Counted from the stretch's first letter, positions 16,295 through 41,352 are shown. The stretch: 64,000 bases of DNA from Bacteroidota bacterium (GCA_023251675.1 JAHEYJ010000001.1:1671-65670), one strand, 5' to 3'. The notes: generated from the letters alone by a model not told the origin. Translations and numbers: made by a program.

Positions 16295-16897
16295 GTGTTA
16301 ATTCAAAACGTAAAGATGCGAATATTCTTTGATGAGGCAAAATTTTTGATAAGATTTTCAGTACATTTGATTAATAAAATACCGGTGAAACTTAGTAATC
16401 CATACCTGCTTGTTTTTATTGTTTTTTCAGGAATTTTGATCTCTTCCTGTGTAAAGAAACCCAAATACCCTTCTGTGCCTGTTATCGCTTATAAAGATTT
16501 TCTCCGGTATGGCAATCCGCACAATCCGGATTCTGTGGAGATCGTGATCACCTTTACAGACAACGAAGGAGATATCGGACTTACACAAGCGGATACACTG
16601 GGGATCTTTAAGAAAGGGAATGTTTACATGTACGATTCCTACTGGGATACTACCGGGGTAGATCACTGGGCGGTGTATGATCCACCCATCACTCCGCAGG
16701 TTGATACTTCTTTTATTTATTACCGTGTTCCTCCTATTTTACCGGATGGCGATCCGAGTGAACCGGTAAAAGGCCAGATTTTTATTAAACAAAGGCCGTT
16801 TGTCAAAGTTTTTGACCGGATCAAGTATACTATATATATGTATGACCTTGCCAAACACAAGAGCAATACGATCGAGACTCCTCCCATTGATTTTTAG
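16295..16897 (+). CDS. hypothetical lipoprotein (start codon uncertain)
   Basis: Lipobox-like LLVFIVFSGILISSC. No recognisable domain. Confidence 0.4.
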   Translation: MLIQNVKMRIFFDEAKFLIRFSVHLINKIPVKLSNPYLLVFIVFSGILISSCVKKPKYPSVPVIAYKDFLRYGNPHNPDSVEIVITFTDNEGDIGLTQADTLGIFKKGNVYMYDSYWDTTGVDHWAVYDPPITPQVDTSFIYYRVPPILPDGDPSEPVKGQIFIKQRPFVKVFDRIKYTIYMYDLAKHKSNTIETPPIDF

Positions 16898-16909: not shown

Positions 16910-17956
16910 GTGAATCCTATTTCTGTATTTCCTATACGTACAAAAAAAGATTTTGAAAAGAAGGCTTTGGAAGTTTTCCATTTTCAGGCTGAAAAGAATC
17001 CGGTTTATAAAAAGTACATTGAACAGATCGGCGTGATCCCCGGGAAGGTAAAATCTCTTAACGGGATTCCATTTTTACCTATCGGGTTTTTCAAAACACA
17101 AGAAGTAGTAACTGAGGAGCAAGCAACAAGCAACAAGTCACAAGTCACAAGTCACAAGTTGCAAATCACAAGTCATAAGTCACAAGTGTTTTTGAGCAGC
17201 GGCACTACCGGAACGGAGCGAAGCCGGCATACGGTGACGGATGTTTCGCTTTACGAAAAAAGTTTCCGGAAATGTTTTGAAAGATTTTATGGTAATCCAA
17301 AACAATATGCTTTCCTGGTGTTGCTTCCTTCTTATTACGAGAACAAAAATTCATCGTTGATCTATATGATGATGGACCTGATGAAAAGAAGCGGAAATCA
17401 ATTCAGTTCTTTTTATAATTCCAAAGATGAAACACTGATCCAGGTCCTTATGACACTTTTGAAGAAGAAACAAAAAGTGATCTTGTTTGGAGTTTCTTTT
17501 GCACTGCTGGACCTGGCATTCCCTCCGCTCCATGATAAACAAGCATCCGGGCTGATGTCCGGGCTTACGGTCATTGAGACCGGTGGCATGAAAGGGCGTA
17601 AGGAAGAAATAACAAGAGAAGAACTTCACAAGATCCTTTGCGGGAAATTCAAAGTAAAAAAAATTCATTCTGAATACGGAATGACCGAACTGCTTTCGCA
17701 GGCCTGGTCAAAAGGCGATGGACTTTTCAACTGTCCGCCCTGGATGAAAATCTTTATTCGTGATGTCAATGATCCTTTTCAGATTTTATCACATAGAAAA
17801 ACCGGGGCACTGAACATCATTGACCTGGCCAATATACATTCCTGCTCGTTCATTGCCACACAGGATCTTGGGAAAGTTTACCGGAACGGTTCGTTCGAGG
17901 TATTGGGGCGAATTGATAACAGCGACCTGAGGGGATGCAATTTGCTGGCGGTATAA
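16910..17956 (+). CDS. LuxE-like acyl-protein synthetase / acyl transferase family protein containing an in-frame heptanucleotide repeat
   Basis: 348 aa. SSGTTG adenylate-forming motif. Domain resemblance to PF04443. A 7-aa x3 repeat (V/I)TSHK(S/L)Q lies just upstream of SSGTTG. Confidence 0.6.
   Translation: MNPISVFPIRTKKDFEKKALEVFHFQAEKNPVYKKYIEQIGVIPGKVKSLNGIPFLPIGFFKTQEVVTEEQATSNKSQVTSHKLQITSHKSQVFLSSGTTGTERSRHTVTDVSLYEKSFRKCFERFYGNPKQYAFLVLLPSYYENKNSSLIYMMMDLMKRSGNQFSSFYNSKDETLIQVLMTLLKKKQKVILFGVSFALLDLAFPPLHDKQASGLMSGLTVIETGGMKGRKEEITREELHKILCGKFKVKKIHSEYGMTELLSQAWSKGDGLFNCPPWMKIFIRDVNDPFQILSHRKTGALNIIDLANIHSCSFIATQDLGKVYRNGSFEVLGRIDNSDLRGCNLLAV
17121..17188. repeat. ~9 tandem imperfect copies of heptamer AAGTCAC inside the LuxE-like CDS
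   Basis: Units seen directly: aagcaac aagcaac aagtcac aagtcac aagtcac aagttgc aaatcac aagtcat aagtcac. Confidence 0.8.
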
Positions 17957-19315
17957 TTATTTCAAACCGTACTTCGTTTTATATTTTTCATATAAAACTT
18001 TCTGTTCGTTGGAAAGGTCCAGTTTTTTCCCGCGGATGAATGCGTATTCCACGTTGTTGGTTTTCATATCGAGCGCATCTCCTGTAGAAATAAACAGCGT
18101 GGCGTCCTTTCCTTCTTCCAGCGAACCCACACGGGAATCAATGCCTAAAATTTTTGCCGTGTGGAGTGTGATCGAAGCCAGCGCTTCTTCTGTTGTGAGG
18201 CCGTAAGCGACAGCCGTGCCGGCCTGGAAGCAAAGATTCCGCGTGTTGGTCTGTTCCATGTCGCCGGAATTTTCAAGGCAGAAAAGTACGCCGGCTTTTT
18301 GAAGAAGAAAAGGAAGTTTATAGGGAAGGTCAACATCGTCTTCCGTTCGGTTCGGCAGATCGTGTAAGCGGTTCACCATCACGGCAATGTTATTTTCCTT
18401 GAGCAGGTCGGCCACCATCCAGGAATCCGTTCCTCCCACGATCACCATTTTTTTCACACCTTGTGATTTACTGAAAGCTACAGCATCTTCGATTTCCTTT
18501 ACATAATTCACATGAACAAAAAGAGTTTTGGAAGAATTGAAAAGTCCTTTCATGGCTTCGAGGCGGAGGTTTTTTTCCAAAGGACTTGTTTCACTATAAG
18601 CTTTTGCATCGGAAAAGAATTTTTTCAGTTCTGTTTTTGATTTTTCATATTCTTCCGATTTTTTCATCGGCGGAAATTCATTCGCATCTTCCGATTTTCC
18701 CCACTCGCGCCTGAACATGCGCGGCCAGTTCATGTGAATGCCGTCGTCTGTTTTCAGGGCCATGTCTTCCCAGTTCCAGCCATCAAGTTCCATTACCGAG
18801 GAAGTTCCGGAAATGGTTCCGCCTCTCGGTGTCACTTGCGCGATGAGCACCCCGTTCGTGCGAACGGTGGGAGGGATTTTAGAATCACTATTGAAGGCAA
18901 TCACGCTTCGTATGTGGGGATTGTACGCACCGGTCTCTGATTCATCGCGGGTGGCGCGTACGGATTCCACTTCCTGCAAACCCAACGTGGAATTAGGGGC
19001 AATGAATCCGGGATAGACGTGTTTGCCTGCAATGTTAATGATGGTATCGTAAGCCCCCTGCTGTAATTTGATGATTGTTGCATCCGCAACCAGAACTATT
19101 TTTCCATTCTTAAATCCAACAGCGGAATTCTCGATCACTGTTCCGTTGCCGATGTGGGCAATGCCGTTCATCAGCAAAATGCTTTTGGCCTGCCCAGGAG
19201 CGGGAATGGGATTTTGAGAAAATGAGGAATTCAGAATGCAGAATGCAGAATGCAACAGCAAACAATATCGAATCGCCTTGAACTTTGAACTAGAAACCAT
19301 GAACCAGAAACGCAT
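17957..19315 (-). CDS. secreted amidohydrolase-family metal-dependent hydrolase
   Basis: 452 aa. Signal peptide. Amidohydrolase fold motifs (…HVNYV…, …HDLP…). Confidence 0.75.
   Translation of the reverse strand: MRFWFMVSSSKFKAIRYCLLLHSAFCILNSSFSQNPIPAPGQAKSILLMNGIAHIGNGTVIENSAVGFKNGKIVLVADATIIKLQQGAYDTIINIAGKHVYPGFIAPNSTLGLQEVESVRATRDESETGAYNPHIRSVIAFNSDSKIPPTVRTNGVLIAQVTPRGGTISGTSSVMELDGWNWEDMALKTDDGIHMNWPRMFRREWGKSEDANEFPPMKKSEEYEKSKTELKKFFSDAKAYSETSPLEKNLRLEAMKGLFNSSKTLFVHVNYVKEIEDAVAFSKSQGVKKMVIVGGTDSWMVADLLKENNIAVMVNRLHDLPNRTEDDVDLPYKLPFLLQKAGVLFCLENSGDMEQTNTRNLCFQAGTAVAYGLTTEEALASITLHTAKILGIDSRVGSLEEGKDATLFISTGDALDMKTNNVEYAFIRGKKLDLSNEQKVLYEKYKTKYGLK
19233..19253. repeat. (AGAATGC)x3, the reverse complement of (GCATTCT)x3, in the signal-peptide codons of the amidohydrolase gene
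   Basis: Direct observation. Encodes LHSAFCILNS. The same repeat occurs at 38375. Confidence 0.8.
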
Positions 19316-29998: not shown

Positions 29999-31108
29999 AT
30001 GGCAAAAAAATCAAACATCGTTACGCCGCAGGCGCTGGAGTTTCTGAAAACGTATATCAACACGCCGTCGCCCACCGGCTTTGAATGCAAACTTCCGCAC
30101 GGGCAGAAGACCGGCCAGCAGGTTTGGCTGGAGTACATGAAACCTTACGTTGATGAATTCATTGTGGATACCTACGGCACAGCGGTCGGCATCATCAATC
30201 CGAAAGAAGAATATAAAATCGTGATCGAAGCGCATGCCGATGAGATTTCATGGTTCGTGCATTACATAACCAAAGAAGGTTTCATTTATCTCGTCCGCAA
30301 CGGCGGCAGCGACCACCAGATCGCGCCCAGCAAACGCGTGAACATCCACACCGAAAAAGGAATTGTGAAAGCGGTGTTCGGCTGGCCTGCCATCCATGTG
30401 CGTGAGCCCGGCAAAGAAGAACATCCTTCGGTAAAAAATATTTTTTTGGATTGCGGCGTGAAGTCAGACAAAGAGCTTGCAAAACTCGGCGTGCATGTGG
30501 GCTGTGTGGTAACGTACGAAGATGAGTTCATGATACTGAATAATACTTTTTACACAGGCCGTGCATTGGATAACCGCGCAGGCGGATTCATGATCGCGCA
30601 GGTGGCGCGGCTGATCAAAGAAAATAAAACAAAACTTCCGTTCGGGTTGTACATTGTGAATTCCGTGCAGGAAGAAGTCGGGCTGAACGGAGCCAAGATG
30701 ATCGCCAACCGCATCAGTCCCGCCGCCGCCATCATCACCGATGTAACGCACGATACACACACGCCGATGATGAACAAAGTCCACCAGGGCGATGTCACCT
30801 GCGGAAAAGGGCCAAGCGTAACGTACGGACCGGCCGTTCATAATAATCTTCTCAACCAGATCATCCAGACCGCCAAGAAAAATAAAATTCCGATTCAGCG
30901 TGAAGTGGCTTCGCGTTCCACCGGAACAGATACAGATGCATTTGCGTATTCCGGCAGCGGAATTGCTTCGGCATTGATCTCGCTTCCGCTGCGCTATATG
31001 CACACAACGGTGGAGTCAGTTCATAAAGATGATGTGGAAAGCGTCATCAAACTTATTTACGAAACACTGAAAGGAATAAAAAGAAATCTGAAGTTTGGAT
31101 ATTTGTAG
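29999..31108 (+). CDS. M42 family aminopeptidase (FrvX/CelM-like)
   Basis: 369 aa. Conserved HADEI and metal-ligand regions. Confidence 0.8.
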   Translation: MAKKSNIVTPQALEFLKTYINTPSPTGFECKLPHGQKTGQQVWLEYMKPYVDEFIVDTYGTAVGIINPKEEYKIVIEAHADEISWFVHYITKEGFIYLVRNGGSDHQIAPSKRVNIHTEKGIVKAVFGWPAIHVREPGKEEHPSVKNIFLDCGVKSDKELAKLGVHVGCVVTYEDEFMILNNTFYTGRALDNRAGGFMIAQVARLIKENKTKLPFGLYIVNSVQEEVGLNGAKMIANRISPAAAIITDVTHDTHTPMMNKVHQGDVTCGKGPSVTYGPAVHNNLLNQIIQTAKKNKIPIQREVASRSTGTDTDAFAYSGSGIASALISLPLRYMHTTVESVHKDDVESVIKLIYETLKGIKRNLKFGYL

Positions 31109-31420
31109 GAATAGTTAATGGTTGGAAGGTTTTTAGTTTTGGTTTTTTTAGTTCTTTGTTCCGGTTATTGATTCAACTAAACAAAACAGACTAAGGCCAT
31201 CCCGATAGCTATCGGGACTAAAAGAACTATAACTATCAACCCAAAACTATGAACCGCAAAAGCCCTGCTAATAATTTTTTCAGTGGCCGGCTGATTAACG
31301 ATCACCGGCTGTATACCGATCACCGGTTTTCGTTATCAACATTAAATTGTTTTAAAATCATGCGCCGTATGGTTGTCCTATGGTAATTTATATTTAGATT
31401 TGCTTTGTAAACTAATCACC

Positions 31421-32281
31421 ATGCGAAAAATACTTATTTACCCTATTACCCTTATTTCCTTTATTTCCTTTGCATTATTAACTTCCTGTGGAAACGGAAA
31501 AGACGAGCAAAGCGATAAGGCAATTGCTGCTGCAGCGGCAAAGGACACCAACAAAGTAGATGAACTCACGCAATTCAAATATGACAAGTTAATAAGCAAT
31601 GTTCCTATTCCGTTTGATATTCTGAAAGCACATGCCGATGTTCCGCTTGCATACAATGCAGATGCGGTTAATCCGGCTTCCAACCTCAACTATTATTCAT
31701 CCTCTACTTCTAAAGCATTGAACCTGGGAATTTACGGCGGTGATATGGCGTACAGTATCACGTACGAAAAATTTGAAGAGATGGGCAAGTACCTGAAGTG
31801 TGTAAAAAAACTGGCAGATGATCTGGGCATTCCGCTTGCATTTGACCAGAAAGCGTTAGGTACTTACAAAAAATACGGAACGAACAAGGACAGCCTCGAA
31901 AAGATTATTTTTTCTTCTTACAGCGAAGTCGATAAAACATTGAAATCAAATGAACGCATCGGTCTTGCCTCCCTCGTGGTTACCGGCGGATGGCTGGAAG
32001 GATTATATGCCACCCTCACAACGCTGGGCCCGGCTCCAAAGTCGGATAAAACGAAAGGGATATATAAAAAAATATGGGAACAGAAAAACCATCTCAACAT
32101 GATCATTGAACTTCTTTCCCAGTTCAAGGACGATGCCATTTTTTCTTCCGTTGTCACCGATCTTTCCGGAATAAAATCCGTTTATGAAAATCTCGCTGTT
32201 AAATCGGAGATCAATGAATCAGAACTGGCAACACTTACACAGAAAGTAGGTGAAATGCGGGCGAAGGTCATATCGCATTGA
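31421..32281 (+). CDS. hypothetical lipoprotein
   Basis: Lipobox LLTSCGNG. No recognisable domain. Confidence 0.5.
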   Translation: MRKILIYPITLISFISFALLTSCGNGKDEQSDKAIAAAAAKDTNKVDELTQFKYDKLISNVPIPFDILKAHADVPLAYNADAVNPASNLNYYSSSTSKALNLGIYGGDMAYSITYEKFEEMGKYLKCVKKLADDLGIPLAFDQKALGTYKKYGTNKDSLEKIIFSSYSEVDKTLKSNERIGLASLVVTGGWLEGLYATLTTLGPAPKSDKTKGIYKKIWEQKNHLNMIIELLSQFKDDAIFSSVVTDLSGIKSVYENLAVKSEINESELATLTQKVGEMRAKVISH

Positions 32282-32379
32282 TATTTTTTCCCTTTTCTTT
32301 TTACCTGCGCGGCGGATGAAGGATAGTATTATTCTTAATTCGTATATTCGTAATTCGTATTATTCATAATTTGTAGGCG

Positions 32380-33918
32380 ATGGCTATTCTTGGCAACATA
32401 ATCAAGCAGGCAATCGGGCTCAGCAATTCGCTGCCGCGCTCACCCAAAAACAGTGCGCGTATTCAGCAACGGACTTTACGAAGGCTGCTTTCCCGTGCAG
32501 AATACACGGCTTTCGGCGAACAGTATAATTTTTCCAAGATCTTGAATGAAAAGGATTTTGTGAAAGCGTTCCAGGGAGCTGTACCTACGCACGATTACAA
32601 CAAGATATTCCGCCGGTGGTGGTATCGTTCTTTAAATGGAGAGCCGTTCATCTGCTGGCCGGGAAAAGTAAAATACTTCGCGCTGAGTTCCGGCACTTCG
32701 GAAGCTTCGAGCAAACAGATCCCTGTCACCAAGGACATGATCCGCGCCATTAGACGGGCCAGCATGAAACAGATCCTCGCACAATCCCATTATAACTTAC
32801 CGAAAGAACATTTTGAAAGAGGAATTCTCATGCTGGGCGGCAGCACGCACCTGAACTTTAACGGAACTTATTTTGAAGGCGACCTGAGCGGGATCACGGC
32901 CAGCAATCTCCCGTTCTGGTTCCAGCATTTTTATAAACCCGGCAGAAGGATTTCCCGTGAGCGCGACTGGACCGCTAAACTGGATGAGATTGTGCAGAAT
33001 GCAAAGAGCTGGGACCTGTCTACCATCTGCGGGGTGCCGGCGTGGGTGACCATTCTTTTCGAGCGCATCATCGCGCATTACAATGTGCAAACCATTCACG
33101 ATATATGGCCCAACCTGAATATTTATGTTCACGGAGGTGTTTCACTTTCCCCTTACAAAAAAGGATTTGAGAAACTGACTTCAAGGCCGCTTATCTTTAT
33201 GGAGACCTATCTTGCCAGCGAAGGTTTCATTGCCTATGATGATAATCCCAACCGCGAAGGCATGCGGCTGGTGCTGGACAACGGAATATTCTTTGAATTC
33301 GTTCCCTTTACAGAAACTAATTTCAGCAGTGATGGCAACCTGAAAGACAACCCCGAAACACTTTCGATCGGTGAAGTTGCGGAAGGAGTGGAATATGCGC
33401 TTCTGCTTTCTACCTGTTCCGGCGCGTGGCGTTACCTGATCGGCGATACCATCAAGTTCACTTCGCTTGCCAACCAGGAAATAATTATCACCGGCAGGAC
33501 CAAACATTTTCTGAGCTTGTGCGGAGAACATCTTTCACAGGATAATATGAACCGCGCCGTGGAACTCGTGGCCCGCGACCTGAACATTGAGATAAAGGAA
33601 TTTACCGTGATTGGCATTCCCTACGGATCGCTGTTCGCCCATAAATGGTATATCGGAACAGATGAAGTGGCCGATAAAAATGTTTTGAAAGAAAAACTGG
33701 ACGAACACCTGAAAACCCTGAACGACGATTACCGCGTGGAACGCATTGCTGCACTCAAGGATGTGCTTGTGGAAGTGCTCCCTTCCAGCGTATTTTATGA
33801 CTGGATGGAGCAAAAAGGAAAAATGGGAGCACAGAATAAATTTCCACGGGTGATGAAAAACAAACATCTTGCAGAATGGGAAGAGTTCCTGAGATCAAAA
33901 CATCTTACTAATACCTGA
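32380..33918 (+). CDS. GH3 auxin-responsive-promoter family protein (acyl-acid amido synthetase-like)
   Basis: 512 aa. Family-typical N-terminal region and SSGTS motif. Confidence 0.75.
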   Translation: MAILGNIIKQAIGLSNSLPRSPKNSARIQQRTLRRLLSRAEYTAFGEQYNFSKILNEKDFVKAFQGAVPTHDYNKIFRRWWYRSLNGEPFICWPGKVKYFALSSGTSEASSKQIPVTKDMIRAIRRASMKQILAQSHYNLPKEHFERGILMLGGSTHLNFNGTYFEGDLSGITASNLPFWFQHFYKPGRRISRERDWTAKLDEIVQNAKSWDLSTICGVPAWVTILFERIIAHYNVQTIHDIWPNLNIYVHGGVSLSPYKKGFEKLTSRPLIFMETYLASEGFIAYDDNPNREGMRLVLDNGIFFEFVPFTETNFSSDGNLKDNPETLSIGEVAEGVEYALLLSTCSGAWRYLIGDTIKFTSLANQEIIITGRTKHFLSLCGEHLSQDNMNRAVELVARDLNIEIKEFTVIGIPYGSLFAHKWYIGTDEVADKNVLKEKLDEHLKTLNDDYRVERIAALKDVLVEVLPSSVFYDWMEQKGKMGAQNKFPRVMKNKHLAEWEEFLRSKHLTNT

Positions 33919-37663: not shown

Positions 37664-37735
37664 AACAAAAATGCGGATTCCGGGTTGCGGATTAAATCCG
37701 TAATTTTGTCAATTCGAAATCCGAAATCCTGAAAA

Positions 37736-38308
37736 ATGCACGCAGCACAGAACTACATCTATATTTTATTTGCGGTCCTGTATATTATATACAGTCTCGT
37801 CAAGGCAGTAAAAAAGAATGCGAAACACCCGCCTGTTTCTTCTTCTAATCCTCCGGCGCAGAAAAAAGATGAATACAAACCGGTGCAGCCTCCTGTTTCT
37901 TCCCCCGCTCCTGATCCCGGAGAGGATATCAGGAAAATGCTGGAACAGGTATTGGGCAGAAACCAGGAAAGTAAAGCCCCGGAAAAAAAAACAGTTGCCT
38001 CCAAACAACATACAGGTCAGCTGAAAACACCTCCCAAATTGACACGGCAGCAGTGGGCAACCAAAGAGACTCCGACTTCCCGCGACGATGAAAAAAAATC
38101 GTTCCATAAAGACAGAAAGGAGAAAGCGGACCTGGCACACAAAACGGAGATGCATCATCGATCCGAAAGGACCTTTCTTTCCGGCGAACAGGTTCTTCCC
38201 AAAAAAGTTTTTTCAGAAATGGCCATTGCTGACGAAGAGACCGCTGTTGATTTTGATTTCCGGCAGGCGGTGATTTATTCTGAAATTCTGAAACGGCCTC
38301 AGTACTGA
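37736..38308 (+). CDS. hypothetical Pro-rich membrane-anchored protein
   Basis: 190 aa. One N-terminal TM. Low-complexity P/S/K-rich region. Confidence 0.4.
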   Translation: MHAAQNYIYILFAVLYIIYSLVKAVKKNAKHPPVSSSNPPAQKKDEYKPVQPPVSSPAPDPGEDIRKMLEQVLGRNQESKAPEKKTVASKQHTGQLKTPPKLTRQQWATKETPTSRDDEKKSFHKDRKEKADLAHKTEMHHRSERTFLSGEQVLPKKVFSEMAIADEETAVDFDFRQAVIYSEILKRPQY

Positions 38309-38337: not shown

Positions 38338-41300
38338 ATGCTTTCCAAACGATTTGTATTTCTTTTTGGCATTTGCATTCTGCATTCTGCATTCTGCATT
38401 CTGAATTGTTTTTCCCAATCCTATAATTTCAAGAACTATTCTGTCGGGCAGGGGCTTCCGTTTGTGCAGGTCTATGCCATTTACCAGGACAGCAAAGGTA
38501 ATTTGTGGACGGGCGGTTACGGCGGGCTCAGCCGGTTCGATGGAAAAACGTTCACCAACTATACGCCTAAGAATGGTTTGGCTGATCACTGGGTAACCTC
38601 CATTGCTGAAGATGCACAGGGAAATATATGGATCGGAACCATCAGCGGCCTTACCCGGTATGACGGAAAAACCTTTTCAACGTTTACCAAATCGCATGGG
38701 CTGGCAGGCGATTACATCAACTCACTGACACGGGATAAAAACGGAAACCTTTGGATCGCAACCACTGAAGGCATTACCATTTACGATGGAAAAACGTTTT
38801 CTTCCATCAAAAAGAAAAACGGATTAGCCGCCGATAATGTTTCCCTGATCTATGCCGATAAGAATGGGAATATCTGGATGAATACAGCAAGCGGAGTCGG
38901 CAAGATCGTTTTCACAAATAAAAACCCGCAGGACCGTTCGTTTGATAATTACACCATCATGAACAGTGTGTATGATTCTTCCATCACTTCCATCACTGAA
39001 GATGGAATTGGAAATATCTGGTTCGGGACAAACAGCGGCGCTGTAAAATACGACGGGGTGAATTTCAAAACCTATACTTCCAAAAACGGTTTGCTGGATA
39101 ATTCCATCCAGGCCGTGATGAAAAGCGAAAATAATAATGAGATCTGGATCGGAACCGGCAAAGGGCTGAATAAGATCTCTGAAAACGGTGTGGTGGAATC
39201 GTACCGGGTGAGCGAAACACAGAACGGAAATAAGATCGGTAAACTTTATAAAGATACGGAGGGAAACCTATGGCTCGGAACGTCCAACGGACTGTATCGT
39301 TTCCGCGATCCTTCGTTTGCAACCTATTCGGATAAAGACGGACTGCTGAACCCCTTCGTGTTCCCGATCTTCCGCGATCATAAAAAAAATCTTTGGGTGG
39401 GTACGCTGGAGAATGGATTTTACAAATACGATAACAGGGAATTTAAAAGCTTTACAGAAAAAGACGGGCTCATCGGAACAGAAATGTATTCGGGCATGGA
39501 AGATAAGGATGGATTTATTTTAATGGGAACCAATAAAGGATTATCGGTTTATAACGGGAATGGTTTCAAAAATTTTCACGGAAAAAAAGACGGGCTTCGC
39601 GGCGATTCGGTTACCGCCGTTATCCAGGACCGGAAAGGAAGGATCTGGCTGGGCGGAAATAAAGGCGGAACGATCTGGAACGGCAGCCGCTTCCGCACGT
39701 TTGATCTTCAATCGGATGCAGGCAACTTTGACGTATGGTATTTATTTGAAGACAGCAAAGGATCTATCTGGATGGGAACTTATCTGGGCGGCATTTTCCG
39801 GTACAACCCGAAGAACGATATGGGATCCACGGAAAAGGCCATTGAAGACATGACCAAAAAACTTAACCTGAAAAGTAAAACGTATTTTTCGATTTGCGAG
39901 GACAGGGATGGAATCATATACATGGGAAGTTTTGACGGCCTGTATATTTACAATCCATCAACAGAAAAAGTTTCTACTATAACAGAAAAAAACGGATTGA
40001 GCTGCGATCTGATTTATGTCATGGCCTTTGATTCAGCCTACGAGAACTTATATATCGGTACGAACCAGGGCGTAAACAAATTCAATGCAACGGAATTTAA
40101 CCGTACCGGAAAAATCATCCTGAAACAATACGGCATTGAAGAAGGGTTCAGCAGCCTGGAAACCAACTCGAACGGGGTCTGGCGTGATATGGACGGAACA
40201 TTCTGGTTCGGCACGGTGAACGGGCTCATTCATTTCAATCCCTATCTCGTTCCGCACAATTCTACAGAAGCAAAGGTCAGTATTAAAAATATCCGGATCT
40301 TTTATAACGATACCGTTCTTTCCGATAACGCGGAGCTTCCTTATTACCTCAATAATATTTCCTTTGAATACATCGGCATCTGTCTCACGAATCCGGAAAA
40401 AGTACGGTACAAGTATATGCTTCAGGGACTGGATAAGATGTGGTCGCCGGAAACACAGGAAACCAGCGTCCACTTTCCCAATCTTCAGCCGGGCAAATAT
40501 GTTTTTAAAATAATGGCCTGCAACAACGAAGGCGTATGGAGCAAAGAACCGGTGACTTTTTCATTTACGATCACACCGCCGGTCTGGAAGACCTGGTGGT
40601 TCAGGATCTCCATGAGCATTTCTCTTATTATCCTGATTGGGATTTTTATTCGGGTGCGGGTAGATGCAATACGAAAGAAGGAGGCGGAAAAACTTTCGCA
40701 TGAGATCGAGCTGGCCAATAACGAGCTCAAAGCACTTCGGGCGCAGATGGATCCTCATTTCATTTTCAATTCACTTACTTCCATCCAGAGTTTCATTATG
40801 GCAAAAGACGAAGAGTCGGCGCTTCGCTACCTGAACAAATTTGCCAAGCTCATGCGCATGATTCTTTCCAACAGTGAAAAATCATCCATCACCCTTCGTG
40901 AAGAACTGGACTCCCTGAAACTTTACCTTGAACTGGAAAGGCTTAGATGGGACAACAAGTTCGATTATTTCGTGGAGATCGATGACAGCGTTGAAATGGA
41001 TGATCACAAGATCCCGACGATGCTGATTCAGCCTTATGTAGAGAATGCCGTTCTGCACGGAGTGGTCCCTAAAACCAACGGCAAGGGAAGGATCGATATT
41101 CGCCTGTCTCAAACGGATAAACATATAATATGTACGATCCTGGACAATGGAATCGGCAGAAAAAGATCGCAGGAGTTGCGCACCGATTCCAACAAGTCGC
41201 TTCATGAATCTATGGGAATGAAAATTACCAGTGAGCGGCTCGAAGTATTGAATAAAATGCATCGGTCAGAACTAAGCGCCAAAATCATGGACCTGTATGA

Positions 41301-41352
41301 TGAAAAAGGAGAAGCCACGGGAACAAAAGTGGAAATATTCATTCCGATTTAA
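38338..41352 (+). CDS. LytS-type sensor histidine kinase with periplasmic two-component-regulator propeller repeats and Y_Y_Y domain
   Basis: 1004 aa. Propeller repeats, TM, His_kinase (…DPHFIFNSL…) and HATPase_c (NAVLHG…). The signal peptide is encoded by (GCATTCT)x4. Confidence 0.85.
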   Translation: MLSKRFVFLFGICILHSAFCILNCFSQSYNFKNYSVGQGLPFVQVYAIYQDSKGNLWTGGYGGLSRFDGKTFTNYTPKNGLADHWVTSIAEDAQGNIWIGTISGLTRYDGKTFSTFTKSHGLAGDYINSLTRDKNGNLWIATTEGITIYDGKTFSSIKKKNGLAADNVSLIYADKNGNIWMNTASGVGKIVFTNKNPQDRSFDNYTIMNSVYDSSITSITEDGIGNIWFGTNSGAVKYDGVNFKTYTSKNGLLDNSIQAVMKSENNNEIWIGTGKGLNKISENGVVESYRVSETQNGNKIGKLYKDTEGNLWLGTSNGLYRFRDPSFATYSDKDGLLNPFVFPIFRDHKKNLWVGTLENGFYKYDNREFKSFTEKDGLIGTEMYSGMEDKDGFILMGTNKGLSVYNGNGFKNFHGKKDGLRGDSVTAVIQDRKGRIWLGGNKGGTIWNGSRFRTFDLQSDAGNFDVWYLFEDSKGSIWMGTYLGGIFRYNPKNDMGSTEKAIEDMTKKLNLKSKTYFSICEDRDGIIYMGSFDGLYIYNPSTEKVSTITEKNGLSCDLIYVMAFDSAYENLYIGTNQGVNKFNATEFNRTGKIILKQYGIEEGFSSLETNSNGVWRDMDGTFWFGTVNGLIHFNPYLVPHNSTEAKVSIKNIRIFYNDTVLSDNAELPYYLNNISFEYIGICLTNPEKVRYKYMLQGLDKMWSPETQETSVHFPNLQPGKYVFKIMACNNEGVWSKEPVTFSFTITPPVWKTWWFRISMSISLIILIGIFIRVRVDAIRKKEAEKLSHEIELANNELKALRAQMDPHFIFNSLTSIQSFIMAKDEESALRYLNKFAKLMRMILSNSEKSSITLREELDSLKLYLELERLRWDNKFDYFVEIDDSVEMDDHKIPTMLIQPYVENAVLHGVVPKTNGKGRIDIRLSQTDKHIICTILDNGIGRKRSQELRTDSNKSLHESMGMKITSERLEVLNKMHRSELSAKIMDLYDEKGEATGTKVEIFIPI
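38375..38402. repeat. (GCATTCT)x4 perfect heptanucleotide tandem repeat in the signal-peptide codons of the sensor kinase
   Basis: Direct observation. Encodes ILHSAFCILHSAFCILN. Confidence 0.85.

Follow-up and report, generated by a model that had tools for sequence, protein, structure and literature searches.

An in-frame heptanucleotide repeat array in the linker of a PaaK/LuxE-type enzyme gene of Bacteroidota

In a 64,000-nucleotide (nt) stretch of DNA from a Bacteroidota bacterium (GCA_023251675.1, JAHEYJ010000001.1:1671-65670; the whole stretch is called the window below), a gene of the LuxE/PaaK family of adenylate-forming enzymes was found to carry a tandem array of heptanucleotides close to the codons of its P-loop motif. 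With a probability of roughly 0.6, we regard this tract as an old heptanucleotide microsatellite that has stayed in frame within a linker of a conserved PaaK/LuxE-type enzyme where the structure is permissive. Coding repeats with units that are not a multiple of three are usually taken as phase-variation switches of pathogens, and the initial annotation of the window had indeed proposed a slipped-strand ON/OFF switch at this site. The repeat itself was confirmed, and comparison with the sequences of relatives supports the slipped-strand origin but not the switch.

The array and the enzyme containing it

The features considered here are the following:

16910..17956, + strand: gene of a LuxE/PaaK-family adenylate-forming enzyme, 348 amino acids (aa), GTG start (open reading frame (ORF) list, Pfam, AlphaFold)
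17114..17188, + strand: heptanucleotide array, in frame, 10.7 units, residues 69-93 (EEQATSNKSQVTSHKLQITSHKSQV) (sequence, Tandem Repeats Finder (TRF), unit parsing)
17133..17159, + strand: longest perfect stretch, 27 nt, 3.9 units of AAGTCAC (lag-7 run analysis)
17170..17176, + strand: variant unit AAGTCAT, which forms TAA with the next unit and so stops translation inside the array after a frame shift of the upstream part (+1 or -2 units)
17195..17212, + strand: SSGTTG P-loop codons, residues 96-101, two codons 3' of the array (sequence)

The repeat first noted at 17121-17188 (AAGCAAC x2, AAGTCAC x3, AAGTTGC, AAATCAC, AAGTCAT, AAGTCAC, and AAGTG) is real and slightly longer than had been described; namely, unit parsing revealed an additional degenerate unit, GAGGAGC, on its 5' side (17114-17120), and the full array comprises 75 nt, i.e., 10.7 imperfect units or 25 codons. 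The encoded peptide, EEQ-ATSNKSQ-VTSHKLQ-ITSHKSQ-V, contains the three 7-aa repeats as initially described and leads at once into F-L-SSGTTG. TRF assigned to 17133-17187 a period of 7 with 7.9 copies, 83% matches, and a score of 82, the highest among the short-period arrays of the window, and also detected a second period-7 array with 2.6 perfect copies at 17120-17137. A period-28 reading by the same program (1.9 copies, 92% matches) was not adopted, as it represents the same array at four-unit spacing with too few comparisons. Six of the ten full units deviate from AAGTCAC, and the perfect stretch at 17133-17159 is likely to be the sole part of the array that slips at an appreciable rate.

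Under a lag-score criterion, three arrays of period 7 are present in the window and no array with a period of 4-6 or 8-12, and the chance expectation for period-7 arrays, as estimated from 50 second-order Markov simulations, is 0.04 per window. The array hence exceeds the composition-based expectation and falls into the class of heptanucleotide long simple sequence repeats (SSRs; 5-11-nt units). We rejected an assembly artefact because the 75-nt tract is shorter than typical reads and because the identical protein is on record on three contigs (one of 10-20 kb, one of 50-200 kb, and one of 0.2-1 Mb; NCBI, Logan, and ENA). Around the tract, no terminator-like site was found, and there was nothing notable among promoter-like sites.

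As for the enzyme, its description as LuxE-like was borne out by the Pfam family PF04443 (LuxE), which matched residues 15-345 with 39 bits against a cut-off of 24.9 (E-value 6e-10), as well as by the fold and the P-loop. An AlphaFold model built from 57 homologues (predicted local distance difference test (pLDDT) 84, predicted template modelling score 0.84) was most similar by Foldseek to two PDB structures, phenylacetate-CoA ligase PaaK1 (2y27; E-value 4e-11) and the acyl-CoA ligase BT_0428 of Bacteroides (4r1l), and four P-loop residues (S96, S97, G98, and T99) are invariant in the 57 homologues. The equivalog model for LuxE (NCBIfam NF052244) gave only 46.9 bits, far under its cut-off of 550, and the sole sequence relative in PDB was a LuxE chain, 7xc6_E, with an E-value of 2e-6. 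Because the equivalog score is low, the PDB match to LuxE is weak, and the fold is PaaK-like, the protein is predicted to be an adenylate-forming enzyme of the PaaK/LuxE type and not LuxE itself; lux genes were not found near the gene in the window.

In the AlphaFold model, secondary structure is absent from residues 63-91, which are coil, and the pLDDT drops below 50 over residues 72-87, so that the repeat is predicted to encode a disordered linker or loop. A strand assigned by DSSP (QVFL, residues 92-95) then connects the array to the P-loop. Homologues are distributed across the whole of Bacteroidota (Flavobacterium, Mucilaginibacter, and Aquimarina were among the matches listed), and the gene order is conserved in the clade of the window, where genes of succinate dehydrogenase are followed by PorP/SprF, a small hypothetical gene, and the LuxE-like gene. 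The gene encodes a conserved Bacteroidota-wide enzyme and is no obvious surface or contingency gene.

Linker length, repeat unit, and frame among homologues

We compared homologues by their spacer, the segment from the conserved PFLPIEFFK motif to F-x-SSGT, in which the family varies most in length. The matches listed from scans of genome and metagenome contigs were almost all distant orthologues (49-55% identity) and served as an array-less baseline; indeed, of the approximately 150 distant orthologous loci for which DNA was retrieved, 139 had a 14-aa spacer with no identity signal at a lag of seven. The closer relatives, with 55-72% identity, are metagenome-assembled genomes (MAGs) and metagenome contigs labelled Bacteroidetes/Bacteroidota, many of them from groundwater; the closest one in the databases (P0002) is 72% identical to the window protein. 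Their modal spacer is 17 aa, and many exhibit a 7-aa periodicity; at least three identities at lag 7 were counted in the spacers of 26 of 118 homologues, compared with 0-5 homologues at lags of 4, 5, 6, 8, 9, and 10.

In ten lineages recovered as DNA, heptanucleotide arrays end at the same Phe codon, and each lineage has a homogenised unit of its own. The arrays of the relatives are as follows:

P0022 (L161): AAGTCTC AAGTCAC AAATCAC AAATCAC AAGT, 4.7 units
P0013 (L162): ATCTCAC x4.7, perfect (33 nt), identical in three samples from Hainich well H41 (ERZ1292628, ERZ1292630, and ERZ1292633), although these were found by exact-protein look-up
P0016 (L165): AGTCGCC AGTCGTC x3 AGTCATC AGT, 5.4 units
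P0043 (L171): AATCTGC AACCTGC AACCTAT AATCTGC AACTA, unit AAYCTGC, 4.7 units
P0023 (L169): GTCAGGR x4, an A-rich stretch, then ACTCCGC x3
P0002 (L168; closest relative, 72%): degenerate ACTCCGA ACCCCAG ACTCCAT (ACTCCRN x3)
P0141 (L172): AGGGACC x3.6
L081: AAATCGC array interrupted by a 45-nt hairpin insert, about 1102-1150
P0066 (L167): GGTCAGT units adjoining a tandem element of about 66 nt, 1-131

The peptides are nearly wholly different between lineages (KSQVTSH, ISHLTSH, SRQSSVV, NLQPATY, and RDQGPGT), a difference that would be expected from inheritance of the DNA unit instead of the peptide; in terms of peptide, the arrays share a pattern, x-S/Q-x-[VIL], in the four C-terminal residues (KSQV, ISHL, SSV, KSEI, and NLQL). 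Homogenisation within lineages shows that slippage-type turnover operates at this site over evolutionary time, which, together with copy numbers that differ between lineages, agrees with the slipped-strand origin initially put forward. A hairpin reading of the composite 30-aa spacers, in which GTCAGGR would be followed by its inverted complement, was dropped, since ACTCCGC in P0023 is not the complement of the first array. Also, a distant MAG with 49% identity (L073, 3175-3369) has a 65-aa spacer composed of degenerate AAGAAAY-type heptamers (lag-7 DNA identity 0.61), which is apparently an independent and much larger expansion.

The lengths of the array-type spacers fall into classes of 17 aa (46 proteins), 24 aa (4 proteins), and 31 aa (the window only), i.e., steps of three units (7 aa), and the window allele is six units above the 17-aa mode. 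Repeat number thus differs between lineages, from 4.7 to 10.7 units; in contrast, the length of the spacer is constant within all ten clusters formed at 90% identity (28 sequences), and variation among close relatives was not observed in them.

As the initial annotation had claimed, changing the copy number of these 7-nt units, which lie inside the ORF 16910..17956 and are not a multiple of three, would shift the frame. Simulated gain or loss of one or two units led to a stop after 84-99 aa, and these truncated products contain neither the P-loop nor the catalytic domain. The +1 and -2 unit products are terminated by the TAA in the AAGTCAT region (ending in ANHKS).

Such disruption was not encountered among the homologues. 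Two protein searches gave 158 non-redundant homologues, of which 152 retain the two flanking motifs in a common frame, and the number of confirmed frameshifts among the 85 homologues with an expanded spacer is zero. The second search used only the part 3' of the array, so that a C-terminal fragment from an OFF allele would score on a par with a full-length protein, and this search did not give any confirmed OFF allele, either. The other six of the 158 were three full-length proteins with a variant motif missed by the pattern, P0161 of an array-less group, P0141, and P0066. P0141 (264 aa, on a 14-kb contig), which seemed to begin directly behind the P-loop, was rejected as an OFF allele because at the DNA level (L172) the gene is intact and in frame, its GTG start having been mis-called; P0043 was rejected as a disrupted allele for its mis-called start, too. 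P0066 (262 aa) starts within its array, and its contig (L167) begins inside the inserted element of about 66 nt, so that the frame state is undecidable. Overall, copy-number polymorphism with OFF alleles was not found among these relatives, which are at most 72% identical to the window protein.

Regarding annotation, gene callers missed the GTG start in two relatives (L171, about 155-280, P0043, 295 aa; L172, 1890-2153, P0141, 264 aa), and such N-terminally short calls can be mistaken for disrupted alleles.

In-frame turnover and the competing explanations

We propose that, in the ancestor of the uncultured Bacteroidota clade of the window, a heptamer array took over most of the 14-aa linker that extended from the PFLPIEFFK motif to the strand leading into the P-loop. 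The array would later have been turned over by replication slippage or unequal exchange, where only frame-keeping changes survive, and the main surviving change would be an addition or deletion of three units (21 nt, 7 aa), which may be tolerated because it keeps the frame and because the loop is predicted to be disordered. Cycles of gain and loss, e.g., from 4.7 to 7.7 and back to 4.7 units, would copy some units over others and hence amount to concerted evolution in each lineage. Were three units lost from an array of 4.7, the linker would be 10 aa long, which is under the approximately 14 aa common to the array-less orthologues; if this latter length represents a minimum for the linker, in-frame loss of a 4.7-unit array would be forbidden, and the array would thus be trapped and persist. 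The window allele may then be a six-unit expansion (from a 17- to a 31-aa linker) that is now decaying through point substitutions, and its 25 encoded residues are predicted to constitute a disordered surface loop, to which we assign no separate function. Slips of a single unit would inactivate the enzyme by truncation and appear to be rare and purged by selection, not used as a switch. The terminal x-S/Q-x-[V/I/L] pattern would fit the following strand and thereby limit the heptamers permitted.

Several points weigh against this proposal. Spacers of 18, 22, 23, and 30 aa are off pure three-unit steps, and extra insertions are involved in them. The homologues were found as proteins, so that disrupted alleles are under-sampled, and consensus assemblies of metagenomes conceal minority length variants. 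Furthermore, near-perfect homogenised arrays (e.g., the 33 perfect nt of P0013) imply a turnover faster than point mutation, which is also expected of a selected contingency locus. Common ancestry of the arrays is inferred here although their units differ at 2-4 of the 7 positions, and the arrays may instead have originated repeatedly and independently at a hot spot, for which the 65-aa expansion in the distant MAG may be compared.

A contingency locus is the reading closest to the initial annotation; namely, heptamer slippage would turn the LuxE-like enzyme ON and OFF, and the repeat would be kept by selection for mutability. Its precedent is neuO of Escherichia coli K1, in which (AAGACTC)n is present in the 5' coding region of an O-acetyltransferase gene of the CUS-3 prophage; the repeat consists of 3-53 perfect units with 20 as the commonest number, 42 of 64 complete genomes are in the OFF state, and a culture was mixed with 93% having 21 units and the rest 20 or 22 (PMC13001214). 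By anatomy, neuO is the closest analogue of the array described here: both are coding heptanucleotide repeats that are read in all three phases as a 7-aa repeat, and a full-length product needs a frame-keeping number of units. A switch would also explain the truncations upon gain or loss of one or two units, and repetitiveness with lineage-specific homogenised units that is kept across a deep clade needs continuing turnover. Other heptamer arrays of the same genomes, in addition, are positioned in signal-peptide codons and just 5' of starts, which are typical phase-variable positions.

Nonetheless, we consider a contingency locus to be unlikely, although switching at a low rate is conceivable. 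None of the 85 array-type homologues was confirmed to be out of frame, in contrast to the two-thirds-like predominance of OFF alleles in neuO (42/64). The arrays are short, mostly 4.7 units, and that in the window has at most 3.9 perfect units, whereas those in neuO are perfect over 3-53 units. Length is invariant in the ten 90%-identity clusters, and the length classes are three units apart. The neuO repeat is N-terminal in a surface-modification gene borne on a mobile prophage; in contrast, the window repeat is internal, two codons before the P-loop motif, in a chromosomal enzyme gene found phylum-wide, and conservation throughout Bacteroidota beside succinate dehydrogenase genes does not suggest a dispensable surface trait. 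The array works like neuO and the heptanucleotide SSRs of Haemophilus influenzae only in the trivial respect that a slip would shift the frame.

Alternatively, the repeat might be kept for its peptide, as a tunable and flexible heptad linker before the P-loop, the length of which would influence activity, oligomerisation, or the binding of partners. In favour of this, conservation of the modal length is strong (46 homologues have 17 aa), the common x-S/Q-x-[VIL] end of the arrays leads into the strand before F-x-SSGTTG, and longer repeat regions of neuO are said to raise its catalytic activity (PMC13001214). Such a role is, however, improbable in our opinion: the peptide sequences are almost entirely different between lineages, the region is predicted to be disordered, and most Bacteroidota orthologues have a non-repetitive linker of 14 aa. 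The C-terminal pattern is accounted for by the obligatory following strand and not by the repeat.

The arrays might also be by-products, such as target-site duplications or footprints, of small mobile palindromic elements that insert and excise, without any slippage. In L081, indeed, the 45-nt hairpin (z -4.0) interrupts an AAATCGC array with heptamers on either side, and in L167 the tandem element of about 66 nt adjoins a GGTCAGT array. Spacers of 27-34 aa, most of them 30 aa, hold an extra block (GSGVR...LRTPxS), and further hairpin-like in-frame insertions are present elsewhere in the homologues. No inserted element is evident, however, in the window array or in L161, L162, L165, L171, and L172; the window array itself lacks secondary structure, its fold energy being no better than that of shuffled sequences (z -0.58); and heptamer arrays with other units occur without such elements at unrelated sites (signal peptides). 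No transposase or known mechanism yields 5-10 tandem copies of a target site. Overall, we regard this explanation as highly improbable. In other loops of the homologues, peptide insertions recur (PARLNGFSRSGG, identical in P0039 and P0046; LPAGQAG; and PLSRGRGVRGE), and the in-frame structured inserts of the relatives look like miniature palindromic repeats tolerated in coding sequence.

If an in-frame microsatellite is the correct description, the case shows that inference of a switch from a non-triplet coding repeat can fail, and repeat anatomy alone would be insufficient for calling contingency loci in annotation. A heptamer array could then last very long in an essential-looking enzyme of environmental bacteria, staying in frame, changing in three-unit steps, and having its unit swapped in each lineage. 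The array would also be a clean natural case of a bacterial microsatellite that evolves in concert at a single orthologous site, and a minimum length of the linker may be what traps an array.

Heptamer arrays beyond the enzyme gene and known repeat families

The two remaining strong arrays in the window consist of (TGCATTC)n when read on the coding strand, with 4-5 units ending in TGAATT, and are situated in signal-peptide codons:

19227-19254, - strand: TGCATTC array in the signal peptide of the adjacent amidohydrolase, 17957..19315(-) (...CLLLHSAFCILNSSFSQ)
38369-38407, + strand: TGCATTC array in the signal peptide of a 1004-aa Reg_prop/Y_Y_Y/His_kinase sensor, 38338..41352(+) (...ICILHSAFCILNCFSQ)

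The orthologous amidohydrolases have other heptamers at their N-termini (GAACTTG x4 in L168 and TCATTTA x5 in L171), and the N-terminus of PorP/SprF in L172 (4262-4282) has CCTTCTG x3, i.e., (CAGAAGG)3 on the opposite strand. When arrays were counted in the clade and in an outgroup at one threshold (score of at least 10), the clade loci and the window had 13 period-7 arrays in 134 kb (about 5-6 of these away from the LuxE site), and periods of 5, 6, 8, and 10 were absent. In the outgroup, 8 period-7 arrays were counted in 927 kb, and period-6 (22) and period-8 (16) arrays were commoner there. Heptamers are therefore the dominant short tandem-repeat period of the genome and of the clade. This fits the predominance of heptanucleotide long SSRs reported for some prokaryotes and the start-proximal heptamers of some Bacteroidetes, as summarised in PMC4679880.

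A broader idea, which we find rather doubtful, is that the clade possesses a lineage-wide heptamer-repeat system generated or kept by a specific mechanism or by selection at orthologous permissive positions of many genes. Its sites, put forward just as tentatively, would be the linker of the LuxE-like enzyme, the signal-peptide codons of the amidohydrolase, the sensor kinase, and PorP/SprF, and leaders just 5' of starts. If true, arrays that persist across family-level divergence with units swapped by concerted evolution would constitute a slow genome-wide layer of contingency or evolvability in free-living environmental bacteria; if the heptamer arrays across the genomes of the clade prove polymorphic in populations, variation based on SSRs would extend to free-living Bacteroidota.

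Among known repeats, heptamer tandem arrays scattered in genomes are represented by the short tandemly repeated repetitive (STRR) sequences of cyanobacteria (CCCCAGT and relatives). Direct repeats of TAACTGA have been described in Beggiatoaceae, Cyanobacteria, and some Bacteroidetes, often just 5' of starts and occasionally in ORFs at the periphery of the protein (MacGregor 2015, PMC4679880). The window similarly has arrays directly 5' of the ATGs at 37736 and 32380; TAACTGA, however, contains stop codons in every forward frame and is located mostly between genes, whereas the units examined here are stop-free, coding, variable between lineages, and unrelated in sequence. No unit found here (AAGTCAC-type, ATCTCAC, AGTCGTC, and others) equals the described TAACTGA or STRR units.

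Long SSRs with units of 5-11 nt above expectation, heptamers being the commonest, have been proposed to arise by polymerase slippage (Mrazek 2007, as outlined in PMC4679880). The window is similar in that period 7 is its sole over-represented short period. Coding repeats in that survey were noted to be mostly multiples of three, while the array here is non-triplet and is kept in frame at one orthologous site across a deep clade with units specific to each lineage. In Haemophilus influenzae, TGAAAGA is located 5' of hmw1A/hmw2A, AACAACC in or near genes of TonB-dependent receptors, and AATTTTG within hmw1A; these tracts have 6-38 units (13-38 in hmw), vary among strains, and are frameshifted in some (PMC2651432). 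They resemble the array in the window as gene-associated heptamers, some of which are in ORFs where a length change causes a frameshift, but they affect adhesins and receptors and not a conserved cytoplasmic enzyme. We thus class the tract as a coding heptanucleotide long SSR, the new aspect of which is its in-frame retention at one orthologous internal site of an enzyme with lineage-specific units; in the literature searched, we found no description of an in-frame non-triplet array with these properties.

As for the surroundings of the enzyme gene, a 200-aa hypothetical gene (16295..16897) precedes it on the same strand with a gap of 12 nt. Downstream of the LuxE-like gene in L167, (AAGTYCC)n is present in a small ORF (967-997), and L172 has two short heptamer arrays (3308-3370) in the gap occupied by the amidohydrolase gene in other genomes. 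Two weaker arrays were also noticed in the window: one at 37709-37734 (CAATTCG AAATCCG AAATCCT) terminates 1-2 nt short of the ATG at 37736, and the other at 32326-32375 (GTATTATTCTTAATTC / GTATATTC / GTAATTC repeats) lies a few nt before the ATG at 32380 of a GH3-family gene. With other periods, TRF detected a 27-nt repeat within the amidohydrolase gene (18262-18312; 1.9 copies, score 65) and 14-nt and 18-nt repeats (scores 48 and 59, respectively) at 31231-31326, between the ORFs 29999..31108 and 31373..32281.

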